From: a virus
DNA length: 64,000 nt
Virus record (IMG/VR): IMGVR_UViG_3300016665_000872
Location: 1-64,000 of that record
Strand: one strand, 5' to 3'
Shown here piece after piece: positions 31,529-48,819 of this stretch (within the stretch, counting starts at the first letter, position 1; every line of letters begins with the position of its first letter). The translations under genes and the position numbers were made by a program. The notes beneath the pieces are model-generated. The model saw only the letters and a list, made by a program, of their open reading frames with translations, was not told the DNA's origin and ran no database searches.

Positions 31529-31530
31529 GA

Positions 31531-32424: not shown

Positions 32425-32513
32425 GGCGGCCGTTCAGGCAGGTGCGTCAGGCCATGCTAGCTAGGGCTGCCATTGCGCCAGCCCTAGTGGTGTTCTCTAA
32501 TGTGGTTTTGAAG

Positions 32514-33014: not shown

Positions 33015-33058
33015 GTCCCTAAATGATCAGAGGTAGTGACTTAACGGCCGGCTCACTA

Positions 33059-35434
33059 CTAGCGGGCACGGGCGTATTGGAAGGGTGATTCGGCGAAGGC
33101 GCAATATATGTGAGTCTCATTACTTGCGTTAATCCCGTTATTGATAGAGGTATTCCGAATCTTGAAGCCATTGCTCAGGATGTCAAAGGGAGTTGTGGTT
33201 CCCTCTGCACCTGAGCTATTGGGAATAAGTTCGGCAGTGGTCACGTTGTAGGGGTCTCTTGCCGTGTCGTGAACAATCCAATTCTCGGCACGTGACACAT
33301 TGCGGATCAAGACGTAACGGGGGCGAAAGCCGCAGAATACAAATGGGCCGTCTCCACTTGTGTTTCCGTTGCCTGTATAGGAGCCGAAACTAGAGTACCC
33401 GGATACTGGCGCGGAGCAGTATGCAACGTAGTTGCCAGTGGTATAGAAACTACTTGTAACGCCAATCACGGTGGACGAGATTGTTCCCCAACCTGGCGAA
33501 CCAGCACCACCTGCGGCACCTGTGCTATTCAGCAGAAGGTAGCTTGTGGGAATAGAGCTGTGATAAACAAACCAGTTTTCGTATCCAGATGTCTGAGCCG
33601 TACGGCTCTTCATAATGATCAGCGACGGTGCAACACCTAGCCCATGACCTGCAGTGCTATTGCTGGGGCTTGATGTGCTGAAGGTAACAACCGAAAACCC
33701 CGCACTCGCATTCGCCCGCACCGTAGAAGTGATGCTGCCTTGTGTGTTCGTTGAGTTACTGCTACCGGCGTCCCAGGTCCAGGCAACGTAAGTAGTAGAG
33801 GATTGGTTGACGGCGGCGTTTGTGCCTAGGGAGAACCCGTCAGAATTAAACGCTGTTAGGAACTGTGCGTTGGTTGCCTCAGCACCTGTTGTGTCTGTGT
33901 ACAAGTAATTTGTTGCGCCACGGATGGCGTCGAAGACAGTGTTGCTGTACGGCTGGCTACGAGCCTTGATCCAAACAAAATCCGGCGAGAATCCCAGTCC
34001 AGTGATGTTCTGACTGCTGCCATTCCCCGTGTACAGCTTTGTATCGAATACGGTGGAAGGCTTGGCGACTACTGGCGTTGGTAGCGATGTATCAGCCAAG
34101 CATTTGAAGCCGCTGGGGGCGGTGTAGGCGAATGGGCGTTGGCCGAAGTTGGTGACGCCTGAACAGGATCCCGTACTAGATGCCTGTTCAACATAGGGAA
34201 TTAGCCGCCCAGTATTTGTAAGGCTGTAATTGGTTCCTACTTGTGCGCCATTTTTATAAAATCTGATTTGGCTGTTATCTGCATCATAGCCAACGCCAAT
34301 GATGTCACCATTCGTGTAGCCAGCTATGGCGGCTACCTGCACGTCGTTAATCTTGACGTTCTGGAAGCCGCCGATGTCGTACCTGTAGTACCAGCTAACC
34401 ACGCTTGTCTGGGTATCAACAACGCCAACCGCCATTTCTCCAGCAGAGGAAACTGTGTACTCCCAGTACCACTTTCCTGACTGAGGTATAGCAATGGTTG
34501 CGCGAGACTGACGATTATTGAATGTCGAAGAGCCGGAGCAAGTAAAATCCAGATTCCCGTTGGTAAGCGTTGCACCACCTGCGATCGGATTCAACGTCGC
34601 ATAATTTCCCCGAACTTCACCCCCATTTCCTGCATCAGTGCCGCTAGAAACCGGGGTGTCTACGAGGGAATCGTTGCCTGCACCTGCCGTGACCGAAAGA
34701 TTGTTCGGTGTCCAGTTATTGCCGTTGCCAGAAGTGTCCTTCCCTAGTGCCGCCGCTGTTGCTGCAGAATTGTCGGCGAAATCGAGTTTGAAACCGTTGG
34801 TGCCGTAGCTGCCGGTGTACGCCTTGGGCGACCACTGGCCGGTGGTGGAGTTGGTCTCTCCGAATGACGATGGGGTGAGCTGCTGGCCGTCAATCAGGTA
34901 GCACTCGGCTAAATAGCCGGAAAGATAGGTGCCATTGACCAGCTCAACGCCTATCTCGTGACTAACCGTAGAGTTGACCGCGAGGTCTGTATTCTGCGTT
35001 GGATAGTTAGCCGTGCTGAAAGTTGTTACTTCCGTCCCATTGACATACAGCCGAGACCTGCTGGAAGCTGTTACCGAAGTGGTATCAACTGCCCACACTA
35101 GGTGAAGCCATGCGGATGGATCCCGAAATACTTGTGTAGTGATCTGTGACAACCCTGTATCAGAGTGTGCCCAGAGCGTATCATCCGATCTAAAGATAAG
35201 TCGTGTGTAAGGTGTGCCTGCGCCAGTTCTCGCGCTTAATATCGCTTGTTCAGCGCCAAACCTAGACTTTTTTATCCATGTTGAAAGAGTGAAGGTCTTC
35301 CTATTGCCCGCAGAACCGGGAACCCTGGAACAGTAGGCACCGTCACTACTGTTGAAGCGGAGAGAACGTGAGACCTGATATTGCGTGCTGCCAGCGTCAG
35401 CGCCGAGCAGCAGAGAACTATTCAGAGCGCTCAT
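33059..35434 (-). CDS. tail fibre / receptor-binding protein (LamG-like + SPRY-like + repeat domains)
   Basis: SLRFNSSDGAYCSRVPGSAGNRKTFTLSTWIK...LYVNG (concanavalin/LamG-like). GKWYWEYTV...GDIIGVGYDADNSQIRFYKNG (SPRY-like). A C-terminal FVWIKARS.. domain. Confidence 0.75.
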   Translation of the reverse strand: MSALNSSLLLGADAGSTQYQVSRSLRFNSSDGAYCSRVPGSAGNRKTFTLSTWIKKSRFGAEQAILSARTGAGTPYTRLIFRSDDTLWAHSDTGLSQITTQVFRDPSAWLHLVWAVDTTSVTASSRSRLYVNGTEVTTFSTANYPTQNTDLAVNSTVSHEIGVELVNGTYLSGYLAECYLIDGQQLTPSSFGETNSTTGQWSPKAYTGSYGTNGFKLDFADNSAATAAALGKDTSGNGNNWTPNNLSVTAGAGNDSLVDTPVSSGTDAGNGGEVRGNYATLNPIAGGATLTNGNLDFTCSGSSTFNNRQSRATIAIPQSGKWYWEYTVSSAGEMAVGVVDTQTSVVSWYYRYDIGGFQNVKINDVQVAAIAGYTNGDIIGVGYDADNSQIRFYKNGAQVGTNYSLTNTGRLIPYVEQASSTGSCSGVTNFGQRPFAYTAPSGFKCLADTSLPTPVVAKPSTVFDTKLYTGNGSSQNITGLGFSPDFVWIKARSQPYSNTVFDAIRGATNYLYTDTTGAEATNAQFLTAFNSDGFSLGTNAAVNQSSTTYVAWTWDAGSSNSTNTQGSITSTVRANASAGFSVVTFSTSSPSNSTAGHGLGVAPSLIIMKSRTAQTSGYENWFVYHSSIPTSYLLLNSTGAAGGAGSPGWGTISSTVIGVTSSFYTTGNYVAYCSAPVSGYSSFGSYTGNGNTSGDGPFVFCGFRPRYVLIRNVSRAENWIVHDTARDPYNVTTAELIPNSSGAEGTTTPFDILSNGFKIRNTSINNGINASNETHIYCAFAESPFQYARAR

Positions 35435-36279
35435 TTTACGTCACCGATAAACCGAACAGCGATACGGGTGGCAGACTCGACGTGAAACGCCAGCAAATCC
35501 ACCGAATTAGCTGCGGTTGTCAGTGTTGGCGCTACGCCACCAGGGAACTTGAACACCGAATTAAAAGCCATCGTCCGTGACCCCGTGGCGTCCTGCACGA
35601 CGCGGATCACGCCGCTTTGACCCGCGACGACATTGGTTGGAGCGCCCAGCGTTCTGTTACCGCCGAGGGTTACCTGGAAATGATTGCCAAGACTCATATC
35701 TACAGTCACGGTTGCCGCATCTGTCAACGTCACATAGGCACCGCGTTGAGCGGCGGTGAAGGTTTGCGCTGCGTTGACAAATGCTGTATTGGCGCTGTAT
35801 GGCTGTACGCTGACGCCAACAGCGCTGGCCGGAAGGTATCCCGAAATCGTCTGACCGGCCGCAAATGAGATCTGGCCAGTCATGGTGCCACCGGATCTTG
35901 GTAGCGCCGCGCTTGCTACGTCGAATGCATTCTTGACTGAATTCGGCGTAGCGGCCGTTGAAGTGCTCGTGCTGGCAGTGCTATCCGTGAGCTGCAGGAC
36001 ACCAGCCGTCGTCGTCGAGCCGGCGGCGACCCTCGCTGCGGCAATGACGGATGACGTTGCCGTGTTGACGAGGTCAATCAGGACATCAGAGCTCAGCAGC
36101 TGGAGATCACCCGTGCCGCTGAGTCGGCCCACGACCACATTGGGTCCTGCCGGGGGCAGCATGTTGAGGGTGACCGAGACGGCTTCCCACTTACTGCCAA
36201 TTGCTGGATCCGCCAGGAAACGATTATTGACGCGGTCAATGAAAACCGGCCTTCGCTGCGGATCGCGATTCCCTGCCAT
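35431..36279 (-). CDS. tail fibre protein
   Basis: TTTAGVLQLTDSTASTSTSTAATPNSVKNAFD...LPRSGGTMTG is a motif typical of phage fibre shafts. A 4-nt overlap links it to the downstream fibre gene. Confidence 0.7.
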   Translation of the reverse strand: MAGNRDPQRRPVFIDRVNNRFLADPAIGSKWEAVSVTLNMLPPAGPNVVVGRLSGTGDLQLLSSDVLIDLVNTATSSVIAAARVAAGSTTTAGVLQLTDSTASTSTSTAATPNSVKNAFDVASAALPRSGGTMTGQISFAAGQTISGYLPASAVGVSVQPYSANTAFVNAAQTFTAAQRGAYVTLTDAATVTVDMSLGNHFQVTLGGNRTLGAPTNVVAGQSGVIRVVQDATGSRTMAFNSVFKFPGGVAPTLTTAANSVDLLAFHVESATRIAVRFIGDVK

Positions 36280-36314
36280 GCCCGCCAGTTTTAAGCGAAT
36301 TCTAGGAAGAGTGG

Positions 36315-37721
36315 CTAAGGAACAATCACCGGTGCACCGGGGTCGCCTGACTCCAGAAACTGTAGAACTGGGAAGCTATTACCGCCAATACTGATGCTTT
36401 CCTCGAAACGCTGGAGAGCCGAATTAAAGATTCTCAGCCTCTGGGTTCCTCGCTCTAGCCACCAGTCGTTCTGCCTGCACCATGTCGGGTCGGGCTCCTC
36501 TCCGTCGTTCCACAGGAGTGGTCTTGGGTCCGGCCGGATCGCGTCCCGCGGGTCGCCGCCCGGAAATAAAATGATTCCGACGGCATCGGCAATAGTCATT
36601 GCAAAGCGATCCCAGTTGATCTGCCTGAGCCGGAAGTAGTCCATGATCTCGTCACTGGAGTACCTTCGCTCTTTTCGAGCTGCGTACTCCAGGAATGTGC
36701 GTTCATCGCCTACTGGGTAGTCATCCGGCTCGAGCCAAGGCACACCGCATGCCCACCTGACGCAGTGAATATGCTTGCAATCTCTACGCTCGTCTCGCCG
36801 ATCGGGCAGCGTCCGCCACTGCCGGTAGTAGCCGACACCCTCCCTTTCCCACGCTGACCGCACGCTTCGGGCGGTATTGGGCTTCGGGAATAGGTCCCGT
36901 GGCTGCCCCTTGGCCGGGAATTCCAGGTTTGCCAATGCTCCACCCAGGTGATCCGGGCAGCAACAGAAAAACTTGAAGCTGCTGCATAGATGACGTGTCC
37001 CGTCCAGTCGAAATGTCTTCGGCGATGCGGGGTCGTAGTCCAGCCTGCTCCAGTAGACCCGGCCATTGCGCTCAATCCGCCCAGCGGGGCGAGAGAGGTC
37101 GAAGGTCAGGGTCAGCGCGCCCGAGCTAGCCGCAATCAGTGTCAGGGCGACACTGCCGACATCCCGCGACACTAAATCACTTGGATAGCTGGGGCCGATT
37201 GCTGAGTCTTCGAACTGATCGCCAATGAAGATGGAGAAGATCGCGACCTGGGCTGGACTGAGGATTCCCGAGACATCCAGCGTCAATGTGTGCTCTGCCG
37301 GATCAGGACTCGCCGTGTTGAGCGTGACCCGAGCGCTGGTAATCGGCTGCGGCAGCATGATCGAGCCGCGAGTTCTGCAGCTCACATACCACGCCTTTTC
37401 CGGTGAATCCTTGGACGGGAAGAGCGTCGTGATCTCCTTGGAGCTCCCGTCGACTGCACCCGTAATGAACCGCGCAAGACTGTGGACTTGGTAATCCCCC
37501 CAGCTTCTTCCGGTTCCGAAGAAGTACTCCTGTCCGAGTTTCCAGCGTTTGTAGTCCGTTGAGCGGTTGTAGGACTCAATCACCGTTGGATAGACGGTGC
37601 TGCCGTATTCGCCCAGACCCTGTCCCTTCGATGGGTAAATCCCAGCGCTGCGAGGGCGAGGCGACCGGTCAATCGGCCCAAGGCTCAGGCCTTGGTCGAG
37701 TCTTCGGCCGATCCGACCCAT
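36315..37721 (-). CDS. virion structural protein (unknown role)
   Basis: 468-aa ORF in the tail gene block. No motif recognised. Confidence 0.6.
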   Translation of the reverse strand: MGRIGRRLDQGLSLGPIDRSPRPRSAGIYPSKGQGLGEYGSTVYPTVIESYNRSTDYKRWKLGQEYFFGTGRSWGDYQVHSLARFITGAVDGSSKEITTLFPSKDSPEKAWYVSCRTRGSIMLPQPITSARVTLNTASPDPAEHTLTLDVSGILSPAQVAIFSIFIGDQFEDSAIGPSYPSDLVSRDVGSVALTLIAASSGALTLTFDLSRPAGRIERNGRVYWSRLDYDPASPKTFRLDGTRHLCSSFKFFCCCPDHLGGALANLEFPAKGQPRDLFPKPNTARSVRSAWEREGVGYYRQWRTLPDRRDERRDCKHIHCVRWACGVPWLEPDDYPVGDERTFLEYAARKERRYSSDEIMDYFRLRQINWDRFAMTIADAVGIILFPGGDPRDAIRPDPRPLLWNDGEEPDPTWCRQNDWWLERGTQRLRIFNSALQRFEESISIGGNSFPVLQFLESGDPGAPVIVP

Positions 37722-38479
37722 CAGCCAAAGCGGCGCGAGTAATAGGACTGAGCTCCGGGGCCGGAGCGCTGGGCCATAGCTCTTGACGCACGGGCGCGGG
37801 CCTGGGCGCGATTGCCGCCGGACATGACCTCAACCACCGGGTCACGCCTGTTCAGCACGCTGTCAGTGGCGTCGATTTCGGTGACCACAGAGGCGCCACG
37901 CGGAGCCACCTTATTCCTTGTGCCCTCCGCGGCTAACTGGTCGACGCCGCCGGAGCCGGGCATGCCGGCGACCGTGGAGCCTCGCCGCAGGTTCTCCAGC
38001 TGGCTCGTGGCTTCCTGGTTGCGGTAGACCTCGCTGTCCAGCCGGAAGCGATCTCGCTCCTCCGCCAGCGTTGAGTTCTTCGCTAGCGCATCCTGGTACA
38101 TCTTGGATGTTTCATCCAGTTTGGTGCGGTAGCTATCAACGCTGCTTCGGTAGTCATCCAGTTGTCGCTGGTATGACTGAAGCAGGCCGGAATAATCAGG
38201 TGCCGCCTGCTGGGGCTGAGGCGCGGGTTGCGCAGGTTGCGACGGCCCGCTCTGTTCTTCGCTGCGAGCGCCTTGAGCGATCTGGTCAAACAGGCCGCCC
38301 TTGCCAGGCTCGTTCCCTCCCCGCAGCTTTGAAGTGTTCGTGCTGAGCCAGGACAGGATCTCCCGGTCGCTTGCGCCTCGTGCCTTCGCGGCCTCGTAAT
38401 CCTTGTGACCGAAGAAGTCCGGAGAATCGCCGTAGGCCGTTGAAAATTCCATGACCTTAGAAGAATCCGCCCTGGGCAA
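37721..38479 (-). CDS. hypothetical virion-module protein
   Basis: 252 aa with a Q/P-rich linker and a coiled-coil centre. Confidence 0.6.
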   Translation of the reverse strand: MPRADSSKVMEFSTAYGDSPDFFGHKDYEAAKARGASDREILSWLSTNTSKLRGGNEPGKGGLFDQIAQGARSEEQSGPSQPAQPAPQPQQAAPDYSGLLQSYQRQLDDYRSSVDSYRTKLDETSKMYQDALAKNSTLAEERDRFRLDSEVYRNQEATSQLENLRRGSTVAGMPGSGGVDQLAAEGTRNKVAPRGASVVTEIDATDSVLNRRDPVVEVMSGGNRAQARARASRAMAQRSGPGAQSYYSRRFG

Positions 38480-38996
38480 AAACGATGACGCGAGTAGCAG
38501 TGCTCGGTGCTGTCAATGCCGCCGACACGCCGGTATATAGCAATGCACCTGATGGAACGTAGAGGCCAGTATTCTTCTTGTCTGTTTCAGTCGGGTAGGA
38601 CGCCATTGTCGACGCGGGCGATGCCAGGTTCGGCACTGGCACCGACAGGGGTGGCAGGCTGATATTCACACGCTGTCCAGCCGTATTGCCGCCGGGGATG
38701 GCGATGGCAGCAACGGGAACCGTGTTCACCGTGCTAATACTCGCGGTGCTAGTCGCTGTACTTAGAAATGCAATGACAGTGCTTGTTGTCGTCGATGCCT
38801 CGGTGATCATCACCGAAAGCGAGTCGACAACAGCTCCGTCATTACTACTGCAGTCAACCAAGAGCTGGCAGCCAGCCCCTGATGGTGTATAGAAATTCGT
38901 TGCGCTTGTTAGCGCTGCAGCCCCTCCAATTGCCGCAAACGCGTGCAGGGGGCGATCGACGAGAAGGGGCTGCTTATTCGATGAGCTAGTTGCCAA
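38457..38996 (-). CDS. hypothetical virion-module protein
   Basis: 179 aa, Ser/Thr/Ala-rich and beta-type. Confidence 0.6.
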   Translation of the reverse strand: MATSSSNKQPLLVDRPLHAFAAIGGAAALTSATNFYTPSGAGCQLLVDCSSNDGAVVDSLSVMITEASTTTSTVIAFLSTATSTASISTVNTVPVAAIAIPGGNTAGQRVNISLPPLSVPVPNLASPASTMASYPTETDKKNTGLYVPSGALLYTGVSAALTAPSTATRVIVFAQGGFF

Positions 38997-39055
38997 TGCC
39001 TACCTCTTGGCTTAGCGCCACATCAGTACCCTGGCAAGCAGTCTAGCGACGGCAT

Positions 39056-39547
39056 TTAGGCCGGCTTTGGCACATCTCGCTGGGGGCCAGATGCCGCCAC
39101 ATTCGGGCTGGTCGACATTCCAAGGGGTGGCGGTAGCGGTGCGTTATACCGCTGAGCTGCATCAATCCTGTTCAGGGGACTACCAGGGCCAAAGCCGTAG
39201 CCCGGGGTGTTGACCTGCAGCTCAGCGCCGCGAACCGGAGGTGGCACCTGGGGCATCGCCGGACCAGGGGTTGTCAGCACTGCGGTTTCCGGTACCTCGA
39301 CGCGTCGGCCATCGCCATAGGGGCTGACCTGAGGTACTAGGCCCTTGCTGATCAAGTCATACCCAAACTGCGACGGGGCAGGCTGAACTGATAGGTAGTT
39401 CTGGATATTGGTCGGCACCATGCCACCGGCTGCCGTGAACTGCCGGTCCATCGTCCGGGCCTGCTCCCTATCCTGATTCCACTGGCCTGGCTGCAGTTGC
39501 CGGACTGGGCCCTCGAGATACTGACTTTGCGGGTGACGAGGATTCAT
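39056..39547 (-). CDS. hypothetical protein
   Basis: 163-aa Pro/Gly/Gln-rich ORF. Confidence 0.55.
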   Translation of the reverse strand: MNPRHPQSQYLEGPVRQLQPGQWNQDREQARTMDRQFTAAGGMVPTNIQNYLSVQPAPSQFGYDLISKGLVPQVSPYGDGRRVEVPETAVLTTPGPAMPQVPPPVRGAELQVNTPGYGFGPGSPLNRIDAAQRYNAPLPPPLGMSTSPNVAASGPQRDVPKPA

Positions 39548-39554
39548 GGCAGTC

Positions 39555-40556
39555 TCAGCTCCCGAAGCTTGTGATATTCATGTCACGCGCCATTGGCAAA
39601 TAGCGCGCCATTAGTGCCTTCAACTTCTCGTTGTCCCCGAAGGCCTGCACCTGGTTGGCGGCGGGCAGCGGGCTGTTGAAGTTCAAGTTGCTGTTCTGGG
39701 CCGTCGCCTTGGGGGCAATCTCCAGCTCAGCCCCGTAGGCCGCCTGCATCCCGGCAGCAGTAGGGGCCATGGCTGAGGGCTGCGCAGTCTGTGCGCCGCC
39801 TGCCAGGGGATTGGGGCTGCCTTCCGATGGGAAGAACTGCTCCTTCTCCATGGCCAACTTGATGGCCGCATCGTCTGGGCCGTCTGTCATCTGCCCCTTG
39901 GGGAAGCGCTTGTTGTATTCGCGCAGCGCAAGGGCGGGGTTGGCCTCTGCCCACTGGGAGATGCGCTTGGCCTCATCGCCCTGCATCCCCATCGTCAGGC
40001 CCTGGATGATTTCATCCTTGGCGCCGATACCGACCGCGCGCTGGGCCTCGTAGAAGTCGGCCAGCTTGGTCTTCTCGGGAGCCGATGGGTTCTGGGCCAG
40101 CTCGAGCATGGCCTTGCCGGTTTCGCCCTTCCAGTAATCGTCAGAGGCGTACTGCTGCATCATCCGCAGCTTCTCGGCATCCTGGGCCCGGGCAGCAGGA
40201 GTGACCTGCGCAGCAGGGGCACCGATAGTCGGCGCCGCAGCTGGAGATGCGGGCCGCCAGGCGCCCAGATTCGGGTCGCCCTGAATTCGCGCCAGGTTTT
40301 CAGCTCGGCTGTCCTTGAACGGCGAGACGTACGGGGTGTCCGCCACCGGTGCGCTCGCTGCACGGGCAGGTAGGCCCTTCCCGGGGATGCCAATGCCGGT
40401 CTTGTTCAGGAAGTCAACGGCTCCCTGGAAGCCAGCTTGGACAGTGCCGCCCAGGTCGTAGGTGACGCCGCCGGGAGACATCATCCGGAGACTGCCGTCA
40501 GCCATCCGGTATCGCTTGCCCTTGCCAGGGACTGTGATCCAACCCTCAGAGGGCAT
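39555..40556 (-). CDS. hypothetical protein
   Basis: 333-aa ORF. Confidence 0.6.
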   Translation of the reverse strand: MPSEGWITVPGKGKRYRMADGSLRMMSPGGVTYDLGGTVQAGFQGAVDFLNKTGIGIPGKGLPARAASAPVADTPYVSPFKDSRAENLARIQGDPNLGAWRPASPAAAPTIGAPAAQVTPAARAQDAEKLRMMQQYASDDYWKGETGKAMLELAQNPSAPEKTKLADFYEAQRAVGIGAKDEIIQGLTMGMQGDEAKRISQWAEANPALALREYNKRFPKGQMTDGPDDAAIKLAMEKEQFFPSEGSPNPLAGGAQTAQPSAMAPTAAGMQAAYGAELEIAPKATAQNSNLNFNSPLPAANQVQAFGDNEKLKALMARYLPMARDMNITSFGS

Positions 40557-40559
40557 CGC

Positions 40560-41045
40560 CTACCTCCAACACATGGAACCCGTCGCCTGCGCCACGCGCG
40601 TACCGACGGCTGTATCTGCTGGCCCCGGGATGGCCATGATGAATTCGGCGCCGGCTCGCTCAAAGGCGTAGCGACGCACGTCCTCGCGGCGATAGTTCGC
40701 CACGTAGAGCGTCTCGGCGAGTAGATCCACCTCCCGCAGGTAGACCTCTCGGTAGTCCTTGGCAGCCTTCAGGGGATCGGACTGGAAGATCGCCCGGTCC
40801 GTGTCACCCGTGATCCGCTCAATCCGGCTGGGCTGAGGTTGATCCTCGACCCGAAAGACCTGAGAAACGCGGTAAGCCTTGTCGCAGCGATCGAGATGCT
40901 CGATCACCCGCGAATAGAAATAGCTGTCGGGAATGCGTGCCATCGCCTCTTCGAGGCGGGCAACATCACCGGCCGGCAGGCTGGCTCCGACATTGACGCC
41001 AAGGTGGAAGCGGCAGCGGGATTTGTTGTAATCGTCCAGCTCCAC
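40560..41045 (-). CDS. hypothetical protein
   Basis: 161-aa ORF, 4 nt from the downstream gene. Confidence 0.6.
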   Translation of the reverse strand: MELDDYNKSRCRFHLGVNVGASLPAGDVARLEEAMARIPDSYFYSRVIEHLDRCDKAYRVSQVFRVEDQPQPSRIERITGDTDRAIFQSDPLKAAKDYREVYLREVDLLAETLYVANYRREDVRRYAFERAGAEFIMAIPGPADTAVGTRVAQATGSMCWR

Positions 41046-41080
41046 GCATGCACCCGGACACTAAAGCGATTCTAGGCTTG

Positions 41081-41512
41081 TCAGCCGACGTAAATCAGAT
41101 CTTCCGCGATCACTTGATCCCAGTCGACGCGGCCGATCTTCTTAAGCTGATCGAGATTGGTGAAGCGCTCGCCAGAGAGGCTTTGGCGCAGTTCGACGAT
41201 GCGCCGTGCAGTGGAATAGCCTATGCCCTTGACGGCCTTGGCAATGGCCTCAGCTGAAGCCGTATTGATGTTCAGGCGGGTGTCAGCCGGAATTGCAGCC
41301 TCGGGGATCTTGTCCTCATCGACAGGCTTTTCCGCTGACTGCGGCTTGGGCACCTCGCCGGTCCGGCCCTTGCCGGGTTCGTAGGAGACGAGGTCGCTCA
41401 GCTGCACGTACTGCACGTTCCCCGCCGAGTTGCGGATCATCGCGTAGTCCTTGTCGTGATGCGCGATGAACTCGACGATTTGACCGTTCTTGGTGTTCTG
41501 GTACAGCGCCAT
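41081..41512 (-). CDS. helix-hairpin-helix (ComEA-like) DNA-binding protein
   Basis: C-terminal LNINTASAEAIAKAVKGIGYSTARRIVELRQSLSGERFTNLDQL fits the ComEA HhH pattern. Confidence 0.65.
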   Translation of the reverse strand: MALYQNTKNGQIVEFIAHHDKDYAMIRNSAGNVQYVQLSDLVSYEPGKGRTGEVPKPQSAEKPVDEDKIPEAAIPADTRLNINTASAEAIAKAVKGIGYSTARRIVELRQSLSGERFTNLDQLKKIGRVDWDQVIAEDLIYVG

Positions 41513-41516
41513 GGCA

Positions 41517-41550
41517 AATAAAAAAGGGCGCCTGATCGATCAGACGCCCT
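41517..41550 (-). terminator. strong rho-independent terminator after the capsid gene pair
   Basis: On the - strand, GGGCGTCTGATC/GATCAGGCGCCC (12-bp near-palindromic stem) is followed by TTTTTTATTT, 24 nt after the stop at 41574. Confidence 0.75.
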
Positions 41551-41573
41551 CATTGTAGGGAAAAGTCCCTGGT

Positions 41574-42221
41574 TCAGTTCTCCCGGATGAAGGGGATGCG
41601 GACATCGCCCACATCGGCCACTTCGTCCTCGAGGTAGTAAGCCACCTCGACAATCAGGGGAGTGCCGCCGGTCGCCGTCGAGCTCAGGTTGGAACCTGCC
41701 GAGGTGCCGGTGTTGTCGGTCACGTAGACCTTCAGGGTCAGAGCGCTGCCGGTGATCGCCACGGGGGTGATGGCACCGAACTGAGTCTGAGCCGGAGCGA
41801 TGGTCGTGCTGCTCACCGCCAGGGCCGAAGAATCGGTACCCAGAGCGGTGGTGGCAATCTGACCAGTGGCCGTGGTGTTCACGGCACTCGCCAGCTTGAT
41901 CCGGTTGGTGTTGGTGCCAACCAGACCGGAAAACGCAGTGCCTTGACCGCGATCCTTCCGCATGTCGGGCACGCGGATGCCCAGTTGGTAGACCTTGGCG
42001 CCAACGGGGATCACCAGGCTTGTGACGTCAGCACGGGGCTTGTCATCACCACGCATGTCGGGCGAGGGGATGGTCACGTCAAAGCTGGTGGCACCGGTGG
42101 AGCCAACCAGGGCATAGCCGGTCCGGTGGTAGTACACGCGGCCGGGGAGGGCAATGACGGACTGGCTCTGGTAGGAGCTCAGCCGGTTAACGTAATTGCC
42201 CGGGTAGATCGACTTCGCCAT
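41574..42221 (-). CDS. virion structural protein co-transcribed with the capsid gene
   Basis: 215-aa beta-rich ORF lying 17 nt downstream of the capsid stop and upstream of the strong terminator. Confidence 0.65.
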   Translation of the reverse strand: MAKSIYPGNYVNRLSSYQSQSVIALPGRVYYHRTGYALVGSTGATSFDVTIPSPDMRGDDKPRADVTSLVIPVGAKVYQLGIRVPDMRKDRGQGTAFSGLVGTNTNRIKLASAVNTTATGQIATTALGTDSSALAVSSTTIAPAQTQFGAITPVAITGSALTLKVYVTDNTGTSAGSNLSSTATGGTPLIVEVAYYLEDEVADVGDVRIPFIREN

Positions 42222-42237
42222 TGTTCGTTACCTCCTA

Positions 42238-42533
42238 TCAGTAAACGAAGGAGTAAGCGACGGTCACGAAGTCCTTATTCAGGATTTCGAAGCCGGCGAA
42301 GAGGGACCAGATCATGATGATGAAACGACTGAAATCGTCGTTGTTGTTCAGCAGGATCTGGGCGTTGTTGCCGCCGATGCCCACGCCCACGGCTTGAGGG
42401 CCGAAGAACAGCATCGGAGCAGCCGCGGTCACGGTGTTAGTGATCGAGGCGTCGGTGATGGTCACCTGCAGGGACTTCTCGGGCAGGTTGGTGCTTTCGA
42501 ACCAGCGCACGCCTTCGAATAAGAAGCCACTCA
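42238..42533 (-). CDS. major capsid protein exon 5 (5' border approximate)
   Basis: SGFLFEGVRWFESTNLPEKSLQVTITD...MLFFGPQAVGVGIGGNNAQILLNNNDDFSRFIIMIWSLFAGFEILNKDFVTVAYSFVY*. Confidence 0.7.
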
Positions 42534-45500
42534 CTTGTGTTATCCTAGGGGTTCTTTATCCCCTAGTTCTCGCAGTTTCCCATCCTGCGAGGTCAGACTA
42601 TCTCATCTACTTAACCATTTATGCAAGGCGTCAAGCTTGACATTCCCGAGTCAGTAGTTAGGGAGCTGGCCGCTGAATGGTCCGATACTCGAGCCGCTAA
42701 GCAGCTGGGTATTGCCACCTCCAGCTTCTTCCTTCTCAGGAAGCGATACGGAATTCCCTCCTTTACGGAAAGCACCGGATGCCGGCGCTCCCTCCAAGAG
42801 GGAGCTCTGCTGAATCCTGGAGAAGGTTCAGCGCATCCCTGGCACAAAGGGATCAAGGTTGACTGTTTCGAGACGATCGACACGCCAGGCAAGGCGTACT
42901 ACTTCGGATTGCTGGCCGCCGACGGACATACGTCCCTCAGGCCCAATGCGAAGTTCGTCTCAATCGAGCTGCAAATGCCTGACGCGGAGGTCCTTGATGG
43001 ACTCGCGCGCCTGATCAATTGCCAGGGGAAGATTGCCGAGCTCAAGCGAGCAGGCAAGCGTCCCTCCAGGCGACTCCTGGTCCACAGTCGCCTGTTGACC
43101 GAATCGCTCATCCGGCAGGGGATCACACTGAATACTGAGCAACATTCCTTGCCAGCATCAATTCCAACAGCTCTTAGGGGGCACTGCCTGCGAGGACTGC
43201 TTGACGGTGATGGTCACATCAGTGCCAAGAAAAAGTCCTTGTACTTATGCAGCTGCTCATCCAGCATCATCCAGACGGTCTCTGGATGGGTGCAGGCTGA
43301 ATTCGGGCTGAGCCCAGCAGTGCGGTGCAGGGTGCTTCCATCCGGCAAGCCTTTTTTCACGATGACGTTCGGCGGGGGGCCGCGTGAAGTCCTGAAATGG
43401 ACCTACGGCGCTCCCGGGCCAGTGATTGCCAGGAAGAAGGCTGAAGCCGATGCTTGGATTGCAATGGTTGAGTAGCAGGGCACTCGTGGGTCCATTACTG
43501 AGTTTCCTCTCGGGACCTAGTCGTTGAACCTTCCAGGCTGTGACCTGGCTTGGCTGCTGATTCCCCGTTCAATGGAGGGGTTCCAGCAATTCACCCTGTT
43601 TGCTGTACGACTCACGCCGTACAGGCCCAATGGTTCTTAGGCATCACAGGCTGACCTGCCACAAAACCGGCCTGGCCGTAAGCAGGACCCATGCCGCGGA
43701 AGAAGTTGGCATTAGGAGCCAGCTCCGGCTGCATGGGATTCACCATGCCGTTACCGGCATAGCGAGCAATCTCACGGAAGGCGTCGTTCTGACGCAGGTG
43801 CATCATTGCGGTGGGGTCCGCAATACAGCGGTAGTACCCATCAGCGAAGGTGGGCACGTTGCGCTTACGCATGTCCTTGACCACCTCGAGGAGGTCGGTC
43901 TTGACATCAAACTTGGCAGATTCGCCAGTTGCGTAGGTCAGGAAGGGGGCAGAACCAGCCTTGGTTTTATCCAGAGGGTAGTAATAGCCACCTTGGGTGC
44001 TGTCGGCGCGGCCATTAGCCTCTGCCTTGAACAGCTCATCTGCGAAGACACGATCCCGCCAGCGGCGGTAGTCCGTATGTACTACTCAGGTTTCCCTGGA
44101 GACTGACTATCTTTTCACCCTTCGAGCCGAGTCGAGTGGGGTGCAGGGCGCTCTTGCCTGTTATTAAGGGGGCTAAACCCCTCAGGTAGTCGATGCACCT
44201 TCCAGCAATGTATTGCTGGCTTGGCTCAGGATTGCCATAGGCTGCCACAATGCCCTTAGGTTTCCCTGAATTCACCCTGTTTTCACTGAGCAATTACTCA
44301 CTCAGGCGACAACTGTCTTATCGAGCAGAGTCAGACTTCCGATCGATTGATGGAAGACATTGAGATTACCGGTATCCAGCAAAAGACGCTGGGCGGTAAG
44401 TAGAGTTTCCCTCAATTATGTTATCCCAGGGGCTCTTTATCCCCTGGTTCTGCAGCTTTACCATCGCTGCAGTTCAGACTATCTCATCACCCGCAATGGG
44501 GTGCCTCGCGCTCGTGGGGGCCTCTCCTTGCTTGATCCGGCAGTGGGAGAGGTCGACTTTATATGCCATGCAATCTGGTACGAAAGGGCTAATTTGCGGT
44601 ATAAATTCCCGCAATGCCTTCTTATTGCACCCGAGCCTCAAGTATCCGCTCGAGCGATCTAGGCGAAATCGCACTCCAGTCAATGATTCAATCCAGGCGG
44701 CTAACAGTTTGTTCTCCTGTTCGGTGAATGCGCACTTGGCTATACAGCCTTTTGCTTCAACATAAGGATAAAGCTGCTCCTTGCCTGACTTCAGACGATG
44801 TCGAGTAAATCGTTCGCTTGAAGTGATTGAGCCATCATCACACCAGAGAATCGCGAGCTCCTGCAGGCCAAGGCCATCCAGGAATGCCTGATCAAGGCGC
44901 TTCCTTGGACGAGGTCCTGCAAGTTCATACCATCGCGTAAACCACGGCAAAAACAGTTCATGGTCGTCAACAACGTAGAGATAGCTCTCATAGCATTTCT
45001 CCTTCGTCTGACCAGATGACTGCATATATGGTCCAAGAACTCTGCGCTCTTTCCCGAGAATCTTGTTAACCCGGGTTGCCTTCCATTCCAGCCACTTGAG
45101 CTGAGCACTGCTGTGACCAATTCTTAGGTGGACGTACTTGCTTCGCTGCAAGCCGAGCCACCCATCGCCTAACAGGCATCCTCGCAGGAATGCCTGTTGC
45201 TCAAGCGGGAGTTCGTCGAGGACCATGTCTCCCCTAGTCGTTGAACCTTCCAGCGCGTTACCGCGCTGGCTTGGCTGCTGATCGCCCATTGTACGCCACG
45301 GCGTGCATTGGCGGGGTTCCAGCAGTTCACGAGGTTTTCACTGCCTGATCGCTCAGGCAGGCGCCAAGAAACTAGCGACTTTGAAAGTTGAGGGAGCAGA
45401 AGTATCGGTAGGATCTGCGGGACCTGTGTATTCGCGCAAGGTGACTAGCACCTTATCCTTAACGATACTCCGCGAAGATGCGGTGCCCAGGGTTTGATCA

Positions 45501-46022
45501 GCCGTGCGCTCACGGCTGTCTTTGGTACCCGGAGCTCCCCAGAAGCGGTACACGTTGTTATCCCATCGGCTCTTTATCCGATGGTTCTGCGGCTTTGCTA
45601 TCGCCGCAGGTCAGACTATCTCTTCAGCATCGCTGCTGTCCCGCGCTCGTGGGCCTTTACTGTCCTTTCTGGACTCCTTGGCCTAGTCGTTGCACCTTCC
45701 GGCCGTCCCCAGCCGGCTTGGCTCAGGATTCCCCATCGCCCAGTTCATCACGCTGGGCGTTAATCATTCTTCTGCCAAGTAATGGCTTTCCTTGTCAAGG
45801 TTCTCGGGTAATCCCGAATCGATGCTTAAGAGGGGTTCCCTGAGTTCACGGGATTTATTGACCGCTAACGAGCAATCAACGGTCAAGCTGTACAGTCTGG
45901 CCTGGCTGTTTGGCGAAGTCGTGTACTACGACAGGCTCAACAGCCATCTCCACGATATAACTCGGGTGCGGCCGGTACAGCTCTGCGCCTAACAGCTTCG
46001 GGAAGTCATTGTCAATCCACAT
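42238..46022 (-). CDS. major capsid protein, split gene (5 exons, 4 group I introns)
   Basis: Five open segments join into an HK97-type MCP of about 400 aa (..QPGQTVQLDR|YRFWG..VTLREYTGP.. ..FEGVRWFESTN..FFGPQAVGVGIGG..DFVTVAYSFVY). The intervening sequences carry group I P/Q/R/S elements. Confidence 0.75.
42534..43614 (-). mobile_element. group I intron 4 of the capsid gene (antisense LAGLIDADG ORF)
   Basis: P GTGAATTGCTGGAACCCC, Q AATCAGCAGCCAAGCC, R at 43516-43530 and S at 42594-42607 (+ coordinates). The + strand ORF 42621..43475 fills the R-S interval. Confidence 0.7.
42621..43475 (+). CDS. LAGLIDADG homing endonuclease (double motif, N-terminal HTH), antisense to its host intron
   Basis: Motifs YYFGLLAADGHT and CLRGLLDGDGHI, with an N-terminal HTH AAKQLGIATSSFFLLRKRYGI. 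Confidence 0.8.
   Translation: MQGVKLDIPESVVRELAAEWSDTRAAKQLGIATSSFFLLRKRYGIPSFTESTGCRRSLQEGALLNPGEGSAHPWHKGIKVDCFETIDTPGKAYYFGLLAADGHTSLRPNAKFVSIELQMPDAEVLDGLARLINCQGKIAELKRAGKRPSRRLLVHSRLLTESLIRQGITLNTEQHSLPASIPTALRGHCLRGLLDGDGHISAKKKSLYLCSCSSSIIQTVSGWVQAEFGLSPAVRCRVLPSGKPFFTMTFGGGPREVLKWTYGAPGPVIARKKAEADAWIAMVE
43615..44084 (-). CDS. major capsid protein exon 4 (borders approximate)
   Basis: ..HTDYRRWRDRVFADELFKAEANGRADSTQGGYYYPLDKTKAGS...VVKDMRKRNVPTFADGYYRCIADPTAMMHLRQND...GFVAGQPVMPKNHWA. Confidence 0.65.
44085..44304 (-). mobile_element. group I intron 3 of the capsid gene (ORF-less, about 220 nt)
   Basis: P GTGAATTCAGGGAAACC, Q AATCCTGAGCCAAGCC, R GGAAGGTGCATCGACTACC (44187-44199 on +), S GAAAAGATAGTCAGTC (44103-44116 on +). 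Confidence 0.65.
44305..44412 (-). CDS. major capsid protein exon 3 (borders approximate)
   Basis: It is the only open frame here: RETLLTAQRLLLDTGNLNVFHQSIGSLTLLDKTVVA, followed by TGA in a hairpin. Confidence 0.55.
44413..45355 (-). mobile_element. group I intron 2 of the capsid gene (sense LAGLIDADG ORF)
   Basis: It has the same core elements (R at 45233-45247, S at 44475-44488 on +). The ORF 44474..45289 lies between R and S, and its stop is inside S. Confidence 0.7.
44474..45289 (-). CDS. LAGLIDADG homing endonuclease in intron 2
   Basis: Motifs FLRGCLLGDGWL and LAILWCDDGSI. The likely start is the internal ATG 45226 (MVLDELPLEQQ), because the first 21 codons overlap intron elements Q and R. 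Confidence 0.8.
   Translation of the reverse strand: MGDQQPSQRGNALEGSTTRGDMVLDELPLEQQAFLRGCLLGDGWLGLQRSKYVHLRIGHSSAQLKWLEWKATRVNKILGKERRVLGPYMQSSGQTKEKCYESYLYVVDDHELFLPWFTRWYELAGPRPRKRLDQAFLDGLGLQELAILWCDDGSITSSERFTRHRLKSGKEQLYPYVEAKGCIAKCAFTEQENKLLAAWIESLTGVRFRLDRSSGYLRLGCNKKALREFIPQISPFVPDCMAYKVDLSHCRIKQGEAPTSARHPIAGDEIV
45356..45550 (-). CDS. major capsid protein exon 2 (3' border approximate)
   Basis: YRFWGAPGTKDSRERTADQTLGTASSRSIVKDKVLVTLREYTGPADPTDTSAPSTFKVA.. This is part of ORF-track 45353..45553. Confidence 0.6.
45551..45878 (-). mobile_element. group I intron 1 of the capsid gene (ORF-less)
   Basis: P1-like hairpin TTGACCGT/GCGGTCAA with U.G at the CGT|TGA border. P GTGAACTCAGGGAACCCC, Q AATCCTGAGCCAAGCC, R GGAAGGTGCAACGACTAGG (45682-45696 on +), S GAAGAGATAGTCTGA (45612-45625 on +). 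Confidence 0.7.
45879..46022 (-). CDS. major capsid protein exon 1
   Basis: ATG 46022 is preceded by GGAG. The sequence is MWIDNDFPKLLGAELYRPHPSYIVEMAVEPVVVHDFAKQPGQTVQLDR, and the next codon is TGA inside a hairpin. Confidence 0.65.
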
Positions 46023-46046
46023 GGGATGAAACGCTCCGAAGAGTGA

Positions 46047-46823
46047 ATGCGAGAGAGAGGGCGTGCATTACGCCCTCCAAAGCAGACTATAGTGTGGCTT
46101 TGTAGGGAAAAACTTTTGGAGCCCGCTGACGTCCGCGGGCTGCTGGCCTTACTCCTGGCTGACGGCAGCCTCGTCCCATATCGCAGTCCTGGAGGGGGTT
46201 ATGTCCAACTCACCCTCACAGCCGGACTGAACGAATCCGCTTTTCTTGAGGAAAAGGTCGCTGAATTCAGGCATTTCATCCCAACGGATGCCCAAATTGC
46301 TCACTACACGACCACCCCTCGGGCCAACGGCAAAACCACGATGGTCCTGCGGTTTCGCGTTTCGACCAACAAACTGCGGCCCATCTACAACCTCCTCTAC
46401 CCAGGCGGCGAGCGAACGATCACCCGTTCGGCGCTAGACCTCCTGGGTGGTACGGCTGCCGCGTGGATGTGGGCGGAGGGCGCCAGGCGGCAGCGGGATA
46501 ACAGCTTCCAATTGGCCCGGGTCGGCACTACATACGAAGAAGCCGAGCTCATCGGCCAGTGGCTGACGATGTTGACTGGCGCCGACTCCCGCATTGACGA
46601 GGAGCGCGTCAGGCCCCGTCTTCTTTTTTCCGCTGCCCAGGCCGCAAAGATCCAAGAAGCACTGCTTCCCTACGCACCGGTCAGCCGCAAACACCTATTC
46701 CTCTCTGAGATCTGGGATGAGCGATCCATTCGTAGTGCACGCACTCAGCTACTGCTTGGGAAAAGGGGAGATTCAGCTCAAGGGGCGGATCAAGCGCCCG
46801 TGGCTGAAGATCCAGCGACCTGA
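46047..46823 (+). CDS. LAGLIDADG-type endonuclease-like protein (second motif degenerate)
   Basis: Motifs LLALLLADGSL and AAWMWAEGAR. It is similar in layout to the intron 2 enzyme. The start may be GTG near 46093. Confidence 0.6.
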   Translation: MRERGRALRPPKQTIVWLCREKLLEPADVRGLLALLLADGSLVPYRSPGGGYVQLTLTAGLNESAFLEEKVAEFRHFIPTDAQIAHYTTTPRANGKTTMVLRFRVSTNKLRPIYNLLYPGGERTITRSALDLLGGTAAAWMWAEGARRQRDNSFQLARVGTTYEEAELIGQWLTMLTGADSRIDEERVRPRLLFSAAQAAKIQEALLPYAPVSRKHLFLSEIWDERSIRSARTQLLLGKRGDSAQGADQAPVAEDPAT

Positions 46824-47307
46824 GACCGAGCGCACCTACCTCGACCATCAGATCCGCAAGCTGCGTAAATTCCACGACGGCCCGCACGATGCGATCTGGG
46901 ACCGGATCCCGGGTCCTGGCTTTTATGACATCGAGCGGCTGCGATTCAAGGGCAGCCAGCTCTGGCACGTCTATGAGCTCCTCTACCCCCGGGATGAGTG
47001 GACCCTGACCCCAGACATCCTGCGCATGACGGGCATGACTGGCATTGCAGCCCTTTGGTGCGACTGCGGCCACTGGAAGAACGGCACGATGCGCTTCGGG
47101 GGGCGTGATCTGAATATCACCAGGGACGACTACGCGCTCCTGGCGACTCATCTCGCTGATCTTGGCTTCCACTGCCGCATTGAGAACCGCGGGCGTCTTG
47201 TTGTGGCCGTCACTATGACCCCGCTCTATCTCAGGGACTTCATTCGCAAGCTGCGGCCCCACGTCCACCGCTCGATGCATCACACCTTGGTGAAGCCACG
47301 CCGCTAA
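46594..47307 (+). CDS. LAGLIDADG-type endonuclease-like protein (motifs degenerate)
   Basis: The likely start is ATG 46717 (MSDPFVVHALSYCLGKGEI..). The second motif is IAALWCDCGHW. It overlaps the previous ORF in another frame. Confidence 0.55.
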   Translation: MTRSASGPVFFFPLPRPQRSKKHCFPTHRSAANTYSSLRSGMSDPFVVHALSYCLGKGEIQLKGRIKRPWLKIQRPETERTYLDHQIRKLRKFHDGPHDAIWDRIPGPGFYDIERLRFKGSQLWHVYELLYPRDEWTLTPDILRMTGMTGIAALWCDCGHWKNGTMRFGGRDLNITRDDYALLATHLADLGFHCRIENRGRLVVAVTMTPLYLRDFIRKLRPHVHRSMHHTLVKPRR

Positions 47308-47530
47308 CATCAAGAAGCCCCGAAGAAGAACGGCGTCAGGGGCATAATCCACCAGGAGTTCAAGTTTTTGCCGTTTCCTTGAACTGGTGAGTGAACCGCC
47401 GTGCGACTGATCACCGTGCGGCGGCGCCTGGGCCTGGTTTTCTCTAGCATGCTTGCAATCGCGGGCATTATATGCAGAGGGCGATCGATTTCTGCGATGC
47501 CGCCACGGCTATTTCACCGGGGATTGAGCC

Positions 47531-48331
47531 ATGAGCGTGCTCTCCCAGAGTGATGCCATTGAGGCCCTTCGCAGGAGCTACGGGGGCAGCGACAGCACAG
47601 CGCCATCTTTCCTGAGGCCCCAGTACGTTCGGCACAATAGTTTCAGCAAGGCTCAAGACTTCGGCCCCAGGGACAACCTCAATGCTGTCGTCAGTGGATT
47701 AGTCGGCGGCGAGGTCGGGGCTCCCACGCTGTTCTTCAAGGTGCAGCTCAACAGTCCCGCCGACGTGCGCATCGTCAAGGGCAGTATCAATCCCAGGACG
47801 GACCAGTACATCGCTGTCGGCATCACAGATGGGGACCGCCGCCCGCTTCCCCTCGATGAGCTGGGCTTCCTGTCGGCCAACGACGTCCATAACACCGAGG
47901 ACAACGAGTCCCTGGCGCGCTCGCCAGCCGGCACCTATTACTTCACGGTGAGCTCCAGCCAGTGGCAGGCGCTCCCCTTTTCTGTGGGGCTGCTGGTCAT
48001 CAGCTACAAGGAGGTCTCAGGCTTCCTCTCCGGCACCGGCGATGTCACGGGCCGCCTGGCCATGGCCAAGCTCGAGGGTGCGGCCCTGGGCTCCGACGCG
48101 ACCAGTGCTGCCATCCCTGTTCCCGCGACGATCGAGCGGCTGGATGGCGCTACTGGTGGCGCTGCTCCCCTGGCAGGTGAGTTGGCGATCTTGAGCGGTG
48201 CCATCACCGGCACCATGACGCCCTATGGCTATCTGATGCAGACCCATCGCCTCGAGGGTGCTGCCAGCGCCGCCGCGCCCGTTACCGGCACTCTCACGGT
48301 CACCACCCCGGGCGGCGGGTACGGATACTAA
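47531..48331 (+). CDS. hypothetical protein
   Basis: 266-aa ORF on the + strand within the otherwise - strand virion module. Confidence 0.6.
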   Translation: MSVLSQSDAIEALRRSYGGSDSTAPSFLRPQYVRHNSFSKAQDFGPRDNLNAVVSGLVGGEVGAPTLFFKVQLNSPADVRIVKGSINPRTDQYIAVGITDGDRRPLPLDELGFLSANDVHNTEDNESLARSPAGTYYFTVSSSQWQALPFSVGLLVISYKEVSGFLSGTGDVTGRLAMAKLEGAALGSDATSAAIPVPATIERLDGATGGAAPLAGELAILSGAITGTMTPYGYLMQTHRLEGAASAAAPVTGTLTVTTPGGGYGY

Positions 48332-48396
48332 GGCTTGCGGTCTGTCTGCACTGGCGTTCAAAATTGCCACAATAGAGAGGAAGAATTAGGCGCGAC

Positions 48397-48819
48397 ATGG
48401 CCTTCTCGCAGTACCTTGCCAGTCAAATCTTGAACTGGGTCAAGGGAACAACGTTTGCCTCGTCGCTCAGCAACGTCTTCATCTCGATCCACACGGGCGA
48501 CCCCGGCACTGCTGGCACCGCTAACGACACCACCAGCAATGTGACGGGCACCGCCAACCGTCGCTCGGTCTCCAGCGCCGCCTTCTCCTCTGTTGGCAGT
48601 GCTCCAGGCGGTGGCTTTCAGATCACCAACACCGGCACCGTGCAGCTCACCACCAGTGCGGCCAACAGCACGCCCGTGACCGTCACCCATTTCGGCATCT
48701 GGGACGCCCAGACCGGCGGCAACTTCCTGGCCTCTGGCTCCCTGACGACCAGCGTTTCCATTCAAAACGGCGACACCGTGCAGTTCAACATCGGCGCCAT
48801 GGCCGTGCGGGTGGTCTGA
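48397..48819 (+). CDS. hypothetical conserved phage protein
   Basis: MAFSQYLASQILNWVKGTTF...FISIHTGDPGTAGTANDT...VTHFGIWDAQTGGNFLASG..NGDTVQF is a pattern I recall from phage structural regions. The family name is not known to me. Confidence 0.65.
   Translation: MAFSQYLASQILNWVKGTTFASSLSNVFISIHTGDPGTAGTANDTTSNVTGTANRRSVSSAAFSSVGSAPGGGFQITNTGTVQLTTSAANSTPVTVTHFGIWDAQTGGNFLASGSLTTSVSIQNGDTVQFNIGAMAVRVV

Follow-up and report, generated by a model that had tools for sequence, protein, structure and literature searches.

The DNA analysed here, called the window below, comprises 64,000 nucleotides (nt) of the viral record IMGVR_UViG_3300016665_000872, and it carries on its minus strand a major head (capsid) gene in which the Rfam model Intron_gpI was found four times. 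The last of these group I introns, intron 4, contains a homing endonuclease gene (HEG) in reverse, on the strand opposite to the ribozyme and the capsid transcript. The related contigs that were compared bear L-numbers as labels. The translated exons gave with tblastn a single match in the phage collection, Synechococcus phage S-EIVl (KJ410740; 61% identity, 98% query cover), and megablast of 41500-48500 against INPHARED gave no match; the window belongs to a freshwater cyanophage related to Synechococcus phage S-EIV1.

The interrupted capsid gene and its fourth intron

At the capsid locus S-EIVl has an uninterrupted open reading frame (ORF) of 383 amino acids (aa; L001 3587-4738, plus strand), and with its help the capsid gene of the window was resolved into the following parts, all on the minus strand and listed in the order of transcription.

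46022-45879 (minus): exon 1 of the major head gene, ATG at 46022
45878-45551 (minus): intron 1, 328 nt, Rfam 50.9 bits, no ORF
45550-45374 (minus): exon 2 of the major head gene
45373-44413 (minus): intron 2, 961 nt, Rfam 30.3 bits, sense LAGLIDADG_2 ORF
44412-44320 (minus): exon 3 of the major head gene
44319-44074 (minus): intron 3, 246 nt, Rfam 70.3 bits, no ORF
43639-44073 (minus): exon 4, ending GTG ATG CCT (V M P), placed by tblastn and blastp with the intron-free ORF of S-EIVl as reference
43638-42532 (minus): intron 4, 1107 nt, between capsid codons 283/284, Rfam 49.3 bits, antisense LAGLIDADG_3 ORF
42238-42531 (minus): exon 5, starting AGT GGC TTC (S G F), stop codon at 42238-42240

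The joined exons encode a protein of 380 aa, 68% identical to that of S-EIVl and gap-free at every junction, which matches PHROG 1357 'major head protein' (3e-21). Among 559 capsid relatives in IMG/VR, the best 80 are all continuous intron-free ORFs, at most 97% identical to the spliced product, and 79 of these 80 have an uninterrupted PVMP[ST]G[FMV][LQ]FEG at the site of intron 4. The intron-free allele L016 reads ...GTGATGCCC|TCCGGCTTC... at this site, also given as GCTGGTCAGCCCGTGATGCCC|TCCGGCTTCCTGTTTGAAGGT.

The ends of intron 4 were fixed by the U-G pair of P1, the terminal G (...AAGUG) and the alignment to the intron-free S-EIVl gene, and the resulting junction restores PVMP|SGFLFEG in frame, with a length equal to that of intron-free alleles. 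The range of 42534-43614 given in the first-pass annotation, a reading made from the letters of the window alone, was thus approximately right, its ends being short by 2 nt at the 3' side and 24 nt at the 5' side, and its R and S elements were confirmed. The Rfam RF00028 match covers 42569-43648 on the minus strand (49.3 bits, E = 1.7e-10, model positions 1-253) with an 855-nt insert, and the ORF-less homologue L218 scores 49.5 bits with the same model. P2, P3, P4-P5-P5a, P6, P7, the P7.1/P7.2-type hairpin, P3', P8, P9 and P9.1 can all be placed, and the elements that matter below are as follows.

43625-43630 (minus): internal guide sequence UUGGGC, which in P1 pairs with exon 4 ...GCCU and the first intron AA, the U-G wobble having its U at 43639
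43518-43530 (minus): R element, 5' strand of P7 (GGUUCAACGACUA), from the Rfam alignment and the sequence
43489-43517 (minus): P7.1/P7.2-type hairpin between P7 and P3', with covariation in helices 6 and 7
43464-43475 (minus): 5' arm of P8 (CUACUCAACCAU), whose complement is the last three codons and the TAG stop of the endonuclease ORF
42607-42618 (minus): 3' arm of P8 (AUGGUUAAGUAG), ending 2 nt before the ATG of the ORF on the opposite strand
42596-42604 (minus): S element, 3' strand of P7 (GAGAUAGUC), from the Rfam alignment and the sequence
42569-42591 (minus): P9 hairpin, helix 9, with compensatory changes in 6 of 7 pairs
42545-42566 (minus): P9.1 hairpin CUAGGGG-AUAAAGAA-CCCCUAG, helix 10, with compensatory changes in 5 of 7 pairs

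For the covariation analysis 11 homologous introns were aligned, 7 with the ORF cut out and 4 naturally ORF-less, and the P7 pairs, which form a pseudoknot, were set by hand before the pairs were counted; RNAalifold mis-paired that region. Altogether 98.1% of the cells in the proposed pairs form standard pairs, and 35 of the 67 pairs show compensatory changes (6 of 8 in the P8 helix), and none of 500 shuffles reached either value. With the partner columns slid, the pairing falls to 32-43% and the compensatory pairs to no more than 7. The ribozyme of intron 4 is under selection, because its covariation lies far above both the shuffles and the slid controls. Intron 4 is probably a functional group I intron, for which self-splicing is predicted.

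The S-EIV1-type capsid gene is a hot spot of introns, with at least 12 insertion sites occupied across the relatives (L015, L006, L011, L234, L282 and others), after codons ~31, 36, 48, 88-93, 107, 132, 138, 144, 212-223, 235, 283 and 291; the capsid gene of L015 alone has seven intron gaps. Such genes hold a lesson for annotation, being split or mis-called by gene callers and in the GenBank record of S-EIVl, where a minus-strand coding sequence and a short plus-strand one are placed over the single 383-aa major head ORF (KJ410740 60784-62010). Downstream of the capsid gene, directly after a 215-aa ORF, a G+C-rich hairpin with a U run (GGGCGUCUGAUCGAUCAGGCGCCCUUUUUU; 41511-41560, minus strand), for which Rfam gives suhB/mmgR below threshold, probably serves as intrinsic terminator for capsid transcription.

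The reverse-strand endonuclease gene and its distribution

The P8 loop of intron 4 is filled exactly by a gene of the opposite strand.

42621-43475 (plus): homing-endonuclease ORF, 284 aa, ATG start, TAG stop, filling the P8 loop in reverse

As had been proposed from the letters alone, this ORF has both LAGLIDADG motifs, YYFGLLAADGHT at 42897-42932 and CLRGLLDGDGHI at 43185-43220, and it matches Pfam PF14528 LAGLIDADG_3 in two stretches (37.7 bits against a cut-off of 22.5). The N-terminal helix-turn-helix (HTH) that had been suggested is likewise supported by a weak Pfam match to HTH_23 and by an AlphaFold2 (AF2) model, with a mean predicted local distance difference test score (pLDDT) of 89.7, in which a three-helix HTH-like domain precedes a double alpha-beta-beta-alpha-beta-beta-alpha core. 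The best Foldseek matches of the model are PI-PfuI, PI-SceI, I-Tsp061I and I-DmoI, each with a probability of 1.00, and the profile matches are I-Tsp061I (2dch, E = 1e-5) and the endonuclease domains of inteins. In agreement with the earlier reading that no sense ORF lies between R and S, the minus strand over the ORF span has stops in all three frames and a longest open stretch of 104 codons. The sister intron 2 has its LAGLIDADG_2 ORF in the sense orientation, with the TGA stop (44476-44474) directly after the S element (44485-44477), again as described before.

The protein database contains 18 homologues of the HEG with 38-92% identity, nearly all of 283-300 aa and beginning MQG.KL, the exceptions in length being two N-terminally truncated calls and one extended call. 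D101/G102 (GLLAADG) and D195-G198 (GLLDGDG, with D195/D197) are invariant in 17 HEG sequences, and these motif residues presumably include the catalytic aspartates. For the HEG pairs with DNA in hand, wherever the ratio of nonsynonymous to synonymous change (dN/dS) was computable, it was 0.13-0.20, with proportions of synonymous differences (pS) of 0.55-0.87, at which the synonymous sites are saturated, and of nonsynonymous differences (pN) of 0.15-0.47. By these signatures the ORF is an intact and selected single-chain double-motif LAGLIDADG endonuclease, with predicted cleavage activity. The possibility that it is a decayed remnant, which the first-pass annotation had named as a ground for rejecting its own reading, was checked on these data and excluded.

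The antisense layout at capsid codon 283/284, with the TAG at the base of P8, recurs in L002-L010, L014, L015, L011-L013, L235 and L267-L269. The HEGs at this site are 42-92% identical among at least 10 metagenomic phage contigs and always about 284 aa long, and every contig recovered for the family is an S-EIV1-like phage, with a capsid 50-99% identical to that of the window. At this site L218, L252, L257, L240, L229, L256 and L166 have introns of 259-277 nt that lack the ORF, that of L240 having a plain P8 hairpin. The intron of L218 (6122-6371) keeps in its P8 the sequence ATG-TGC-GAG-TAG, the fused start and end of the HEG, and as a remnant of the HEG ends this sequence means that the HEG was deleted there; on this trace, L218 shows the homing cycle at the step where the HEG is lost. 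The nucleotide identity of the window and L006 is 89% in the exons, 92% in the 5' ribozyme and 64% in the HEG, and such a mosaic is, as read from the alignment, the history expected for a mobile element. A mobile intron is recognised by its presence and absence at a single site and by a history discordant with that of its host gene, and both were found here.

A paralogous antisense HEG, 27-33% identical, lies in an intron at capsid site 31/32 in 13 distinct IMG/VR contigs, and more antisense copies were found there in introns at capsid sites ~139-147 and ~291. For these distant relatives, orientation calling by regular expressions alone left 62 of 80 loci unclassified, so that the argument uses only the loci checked with Rfam, at all 12 of which the intron is opposite in strand to the HEG. 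A whole phage intron family turned its HEG around, and the arrangement is stable despite a divergence to ~27% HEG identity between paralogues; this family occupies several sites of one essential gene.

The rarity of the orientation was assessed in the viral introns of IMG/VR sharing the R motif AAGGTTCAACGACTAG (123 matches), 90 of which have no insert between the R and S elements and 25 an insert of 448-1263 nt. A sense ORF was found in 22 of these 25 P8 inserts and an antisense endonuclease gene in two, the remaining one having no ORF of at least 60 aa, which bears out the earlier statement that the arrangement is unusual. Of the two antisense cases, one lies in L198, again in a capsid intron of S-EIV1-like type, and holds a paralogue 26% identical to the HEG of the window. 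The other, L185, is an unrelated phage (G+C 0.49) with its own major head gene (PHROG 267), in which the intron at 8436-9478 on the plus strand (64.3 bits with Rfam) contains an ORF at 8665-9477 on the minus strand with HNH_3 and HTH domains; judged by its sequence, it is a second, independent phage intron with an antisense HEG.

For bacterial and phage group I introns no report of a HEG in antisense was found in the searchable literature, where absence is no proof; the literature cases are confined to nuclear ribosomal DNA (rDNA) introns of protists and fungi, such as those of I-DirII and I-DsqI (PMC9548176; PMC3073962), and the search also gave an antisense ORF of coral mitochondria, which is unrelated. 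The arrangement goes unmentioned in a 2014 review on the group I introns of bacteria (PMC3984707). The reviews of phage and bacterial group I introns give the embedded HEG in the sense orientation only, an arrangement in which its expression must be squared with ribozyme folding and coupled translation. What seems new, as far as the searchable literature goes, is the reverse orientation of a HEG in a phage, the mobile group I intron with a homing endonuclease being of a known kind.

Expression, homing and alternative explanations

The antisense orientation means that the HEG protein can come only from a separate plus-strand transcript. All ORFs at 30077-42534 lie on the minus strand and no plus-strand gene precedes the HEG for ~12 kb, so that a local independent promoter is needed. 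The search for promoter elements that had been proposed earlier for the plus strand gave no standard two-hexamer sigma-70 site in 42000-48500, but it yielded one candidate of the extended -10 type.

42538-42546 (plus): candidate promoter TGTTATCCT, extended -10-like (TGnTAnnnT), just within the 3' splice site and 74 nt ahead of the ATG

Counting both strands, the window has 9 TGnTAnnnT sites, where dinucleotide-preserving shuffles of it lead one to expect 39 +/- 6, and this four-fold depletion suggests selection against stray extended -10 promoters. Among unique capsid introns, the pattern was found at the 3' end of the intron in all 8 of the single HEG-bearing introns at 283/284, the ninth, L011, having TGTTACCCT, and in 13 of 13 antisense-HEG introns at 31/32, where it reads TGCTAGGAT, TGTTAGGAT, TGCTAGCAT, TGCTATGAT or TGCTACTCT. 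Of the 5 ORF-less introns at 283/284 it is present in 2, the recent deletion form L218 being one of the two. At other sites, where the typical reading is TGTTATCCC, only 1 of 24 introns with a sense ORF or no ORF has it. On this pattern, TGTTATCCT at 42538-42546 is the best candidate for the HEG promoter, although a tentative one, held at somewhat less than an even chance. If it is real, one stretch of DNA doubles as the 3' end of a ribozyme on one strand and as a promoter on the other.

The overall best explanation, which is held with good confidence, is a mobile capsid intron with a reverse-strand homing endonuclease. The minus-strand ribozyme in the capsid pre-mRNA would excise itself to give ...PVMP|SGFLFEG..., and during co-infection the enzyme would most likely cut the conserved site GTGATGCC-N|[AT]C-N-GG-N-TT of capsid alleles without the intron, the repair of the cut allele then copying the intron in (homing). 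The plus-strand HEG transcript would most likely start from the extended -10-type promoter TGTTATCCT and have a leader of ~68 nt without a Shine-Dalgarno sequence. The reverse orientation would uncouple the synthesis of the endonuclease from the very strong late transcription of the capsid gene, since a sense HEG in the most transcribed late gene would be massively transcribed and its translation could disturb the folding of the ribozyme. Low-level expression could then take place earlier, when recombination-dependent replication can use a double-strand break, and a late shut-off would be expected as the abundant pre-mRNA and the excised intron pair with the HEG mRNA and the late capsid transcription collides with the weak plus-strand promoter. 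The locus may offer a natural bacterial-type system for the study of antisense and convergent-transcription control of a selfish gene.

Whether the HEG was turned around as an adaptive, self-regulating design of introns that reside in late phage genes of extreme expression, with early low-level synthesis from a promoter in the antisense of the ribozyme's 3' end and silencing once the capsid is transcribed, is doubtful. Such a design, if true, would account for the spread to at least 5 capsid sites as well as for the independent antisense HNH intron in L185, the latter being consistent with the rationale and no proof of it.

Several observations weigh against the proposed reading. The Rfam score of intron 4 is 0.7 bit under the gathering score of 50. 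In addition to the empty two-hexamer scan, no terminator was predicted downstream of the HEG ORF, and no Shine-Dalgarno sequence was seen before the HEG ATG where the window and the homologues were inspected. TGTTATCCT differs from the TGTTATCCC of the sister introns, which have no antisense HEG, by one base, T instead of C, and since this T lies within a stem pair of P9.1, its conservation could reflect shared ancestry and not promoter function; the introns in the motif census are phylogenetically related, so that the counts given above are not independent. The motif is also absent in the antisense lineages L006 (site 144/145) and L011/L234 (site ~291).

A rival view is that the HEG is expressed from a promoter outside the intron, on the antisense of exon 5 or of the downstream late genes, or by pervasive low-level antisense transcription, with TGnTAnnnT being accidental. 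The lack of a canonical promoter in the scanned region, the missing motif in two other conserved antisense-HEG lineages, and the overlap of the motif with conserved ribozyme sequence common to the sister introns would all fit such a source. However, the ~12 kb without a plus-strand gene argue against it, as does the position of a four-fold depleted pattern, which is shared by two intron families unrelated in sequence (TGTTATCCT and TGCTAGGAT), and an outside promoter is considered unlikely, though worth keeping in mind.

Two further observations touch the HEG mRNA. The antisense of the S element (GACTATCTC, 'TATCTC') was considered as the -10 element of a near-leaderless mRNA and rejected as the main candidate, as it is without the final T and occurs in all introns of the clade regardless of HEG orientation. 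The 12 nt just upstream of the ATG (42607-42618) are complementary to the last 12 nt of the gene with the stop (43464-43475), and this pairing of the P8 arms within the HEG mRNA, as read from the sequence, might form a long-range closure with an effect on translation.

A mobile intron with a homing enzyme has also to be set against the view that the protein is now mainly a maturase or RNA chaperone of intron 4, kept since the capsid could not be made without it. Maturases are known among the LAGLIDADG proteins, the structural matches include bI3 and I-AniI, and the strong purifying selection would also fit an essential host-serving role. Nevertheless, this is improbable: the LAGLIDADG-motif residues, including the presumed catalytic aspartates, are invariant; the persistence of ORF-less versions in intact capsid genes means that splicing is independent of the protein; and the presence/absence polymorphism and the mosaic history point to mobility. 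That the ORF is in decay or is open by chance, as G+C-rich DNA gives long spurious ORFs and many overlapping ones are listed in the window, has practically no probability, being refuted by the 18 nearly full-length homologues down to 38% identity, the low dN/dS and the invariant motif residues, together with the agreement of the Pfam, PDB and Foldseek matches and the confident AF2 model. The same negligible probability is given to a free-standing endonuclease gene that splits the capsid into two separately translated pieces, as the gene callers imply with one gene of 98 aa and another of 265-290 aa in place of the exons, for the ORF is flanked by a complete group I core with covariation, P1 and the terminal G give an in-frame junction with the length of intron-free alleles, and ORF-less introns of 259-277 nt sit at the identical site.

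Known systems and other features of the window

The closest likeness in layout is with I-DirII (Dir.S956-2) and I-DsqI (Dsq.L2066) of myxomycete nuclear rDNA, where the HEG is likewise opposite to the ribozyme strand (PMC9548176; PMC3073962), an own promoter is needed, and concern has been voiced that the host transcript suffers antisense interference, as for intron 4. These eukaryotic systems differ in lying in rRNA genes transcribed by RNA polymerase I (Pol I), in having His-Cys box HEGs in P9/P9.2, and in expressing them by Pol II, with spliceosomal introns, poly(A) tails and nuclear compartments separate from rRNA synthesis, whereas intron 4 has a LAGLIDADG HEG in the P8 of a protein-coding late gene of a phage, with no compartments and with coupled transcription and translation. 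Therefore, intron 4 works like the nuclear rDNA class of antisense HEGs and is not a member of it, its enzyme being a LAGLIDADG protein and its host a phage major head gene.

The introns of T4 with I-TevI, I-TevII and I-TevIII and a Twort-like Staphylococcus phage intron with a LAGLIDADG HEG are likewise phage group I introns that interrupt essential genes, house their HEG in a peripheral loop and spread by homing. For the T4 intron HEGs, expression is under the control of late promoters and of the structure of the sense transcript itself (PMC2988022). The nearest annotated relative of the HEG is orf84 of Staphylococcus phage KSAP7, with 28% identity over residues 75-283; both it and the T4 intron HEGs differ in lying on the intron's own strand. 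I-DmoI, I-Tsp061I and PI-PfuI share the fold and the double motif (Foldseek E = 1.6e-7 to 6.5e-7; template modelling (TM) score normalised by target 0.60-0.68 for I-DmoI and I-Tsp061I) at ~16% sequence identity, but they come from archaeal introns or inteins, while the HEG of the window comes from a phage intron and adds an N-terminal HTH-like domain of ~75 aa.

In 2009, Zeng, Bonocora and Shub reportedly described in the cyanophage S-PM2 the free-standing F-CphI beside an ORF-less psbA intron, under the name of 'collaborative homing'. That system is said to be alike in its cyanophage host and in the separate transcription units of HEG and intron, and to differ in that F-CphI is outside the intron; the HEG of ORF 42621-43475 lies wholly between the P8 arms, its stop codon being part of the P8 stem, and not outside the intron as collaborative homing demands.

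Two free-standing LAGLIDADG_2 ORFs at 46047-46823 and 46594-47307 (both plus strand) are antisense in the late minus-strand block, beside the ORF-less intron 1, and only 24 nt separate the start of the first from the ATG of the capsid gene (46022, minus strand). A homologue is found at the equivalent place in L198 (5687-6223). By analogy, these ORFs and intron 1 could form a collaborative-homing arrangement. They were also considered as close paralogues of the sense HEG of intron 2, and this was rejected, the comparison showing no more than a distant relationship between the two and of either to that HEG.

Among the remaining features of the window, the ORF of the terminase large subunit (TerL; 54342-57020, minus strand, 892 aa) has a LAGLIDADG_3 match at residues 328-371 and matches the models of intein-containing DnaB and Tes over residues ~234-376, by which it probably contains an intein with a homing endonuclease; a TGnTAnnnT site, TGATAGATT, lies 7 nt upstream of its ATG. 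The ThyX ORF (17884-19620, plus strand, 578 aa) has its ThyX domain confined to residues 403-566, and its ~400 N-terminal residues could represent a fusion, an intein or a mis-called start. Finally, a 791-aa protein with SPRY and DUF7483 domains is encoded at 33059-35434 (minus strand) in a stretch of low G+C (0.54-0.55 at 32-36 kb), and it likely represents a module for the tail or for host recognition that has been exchanged horizontally.

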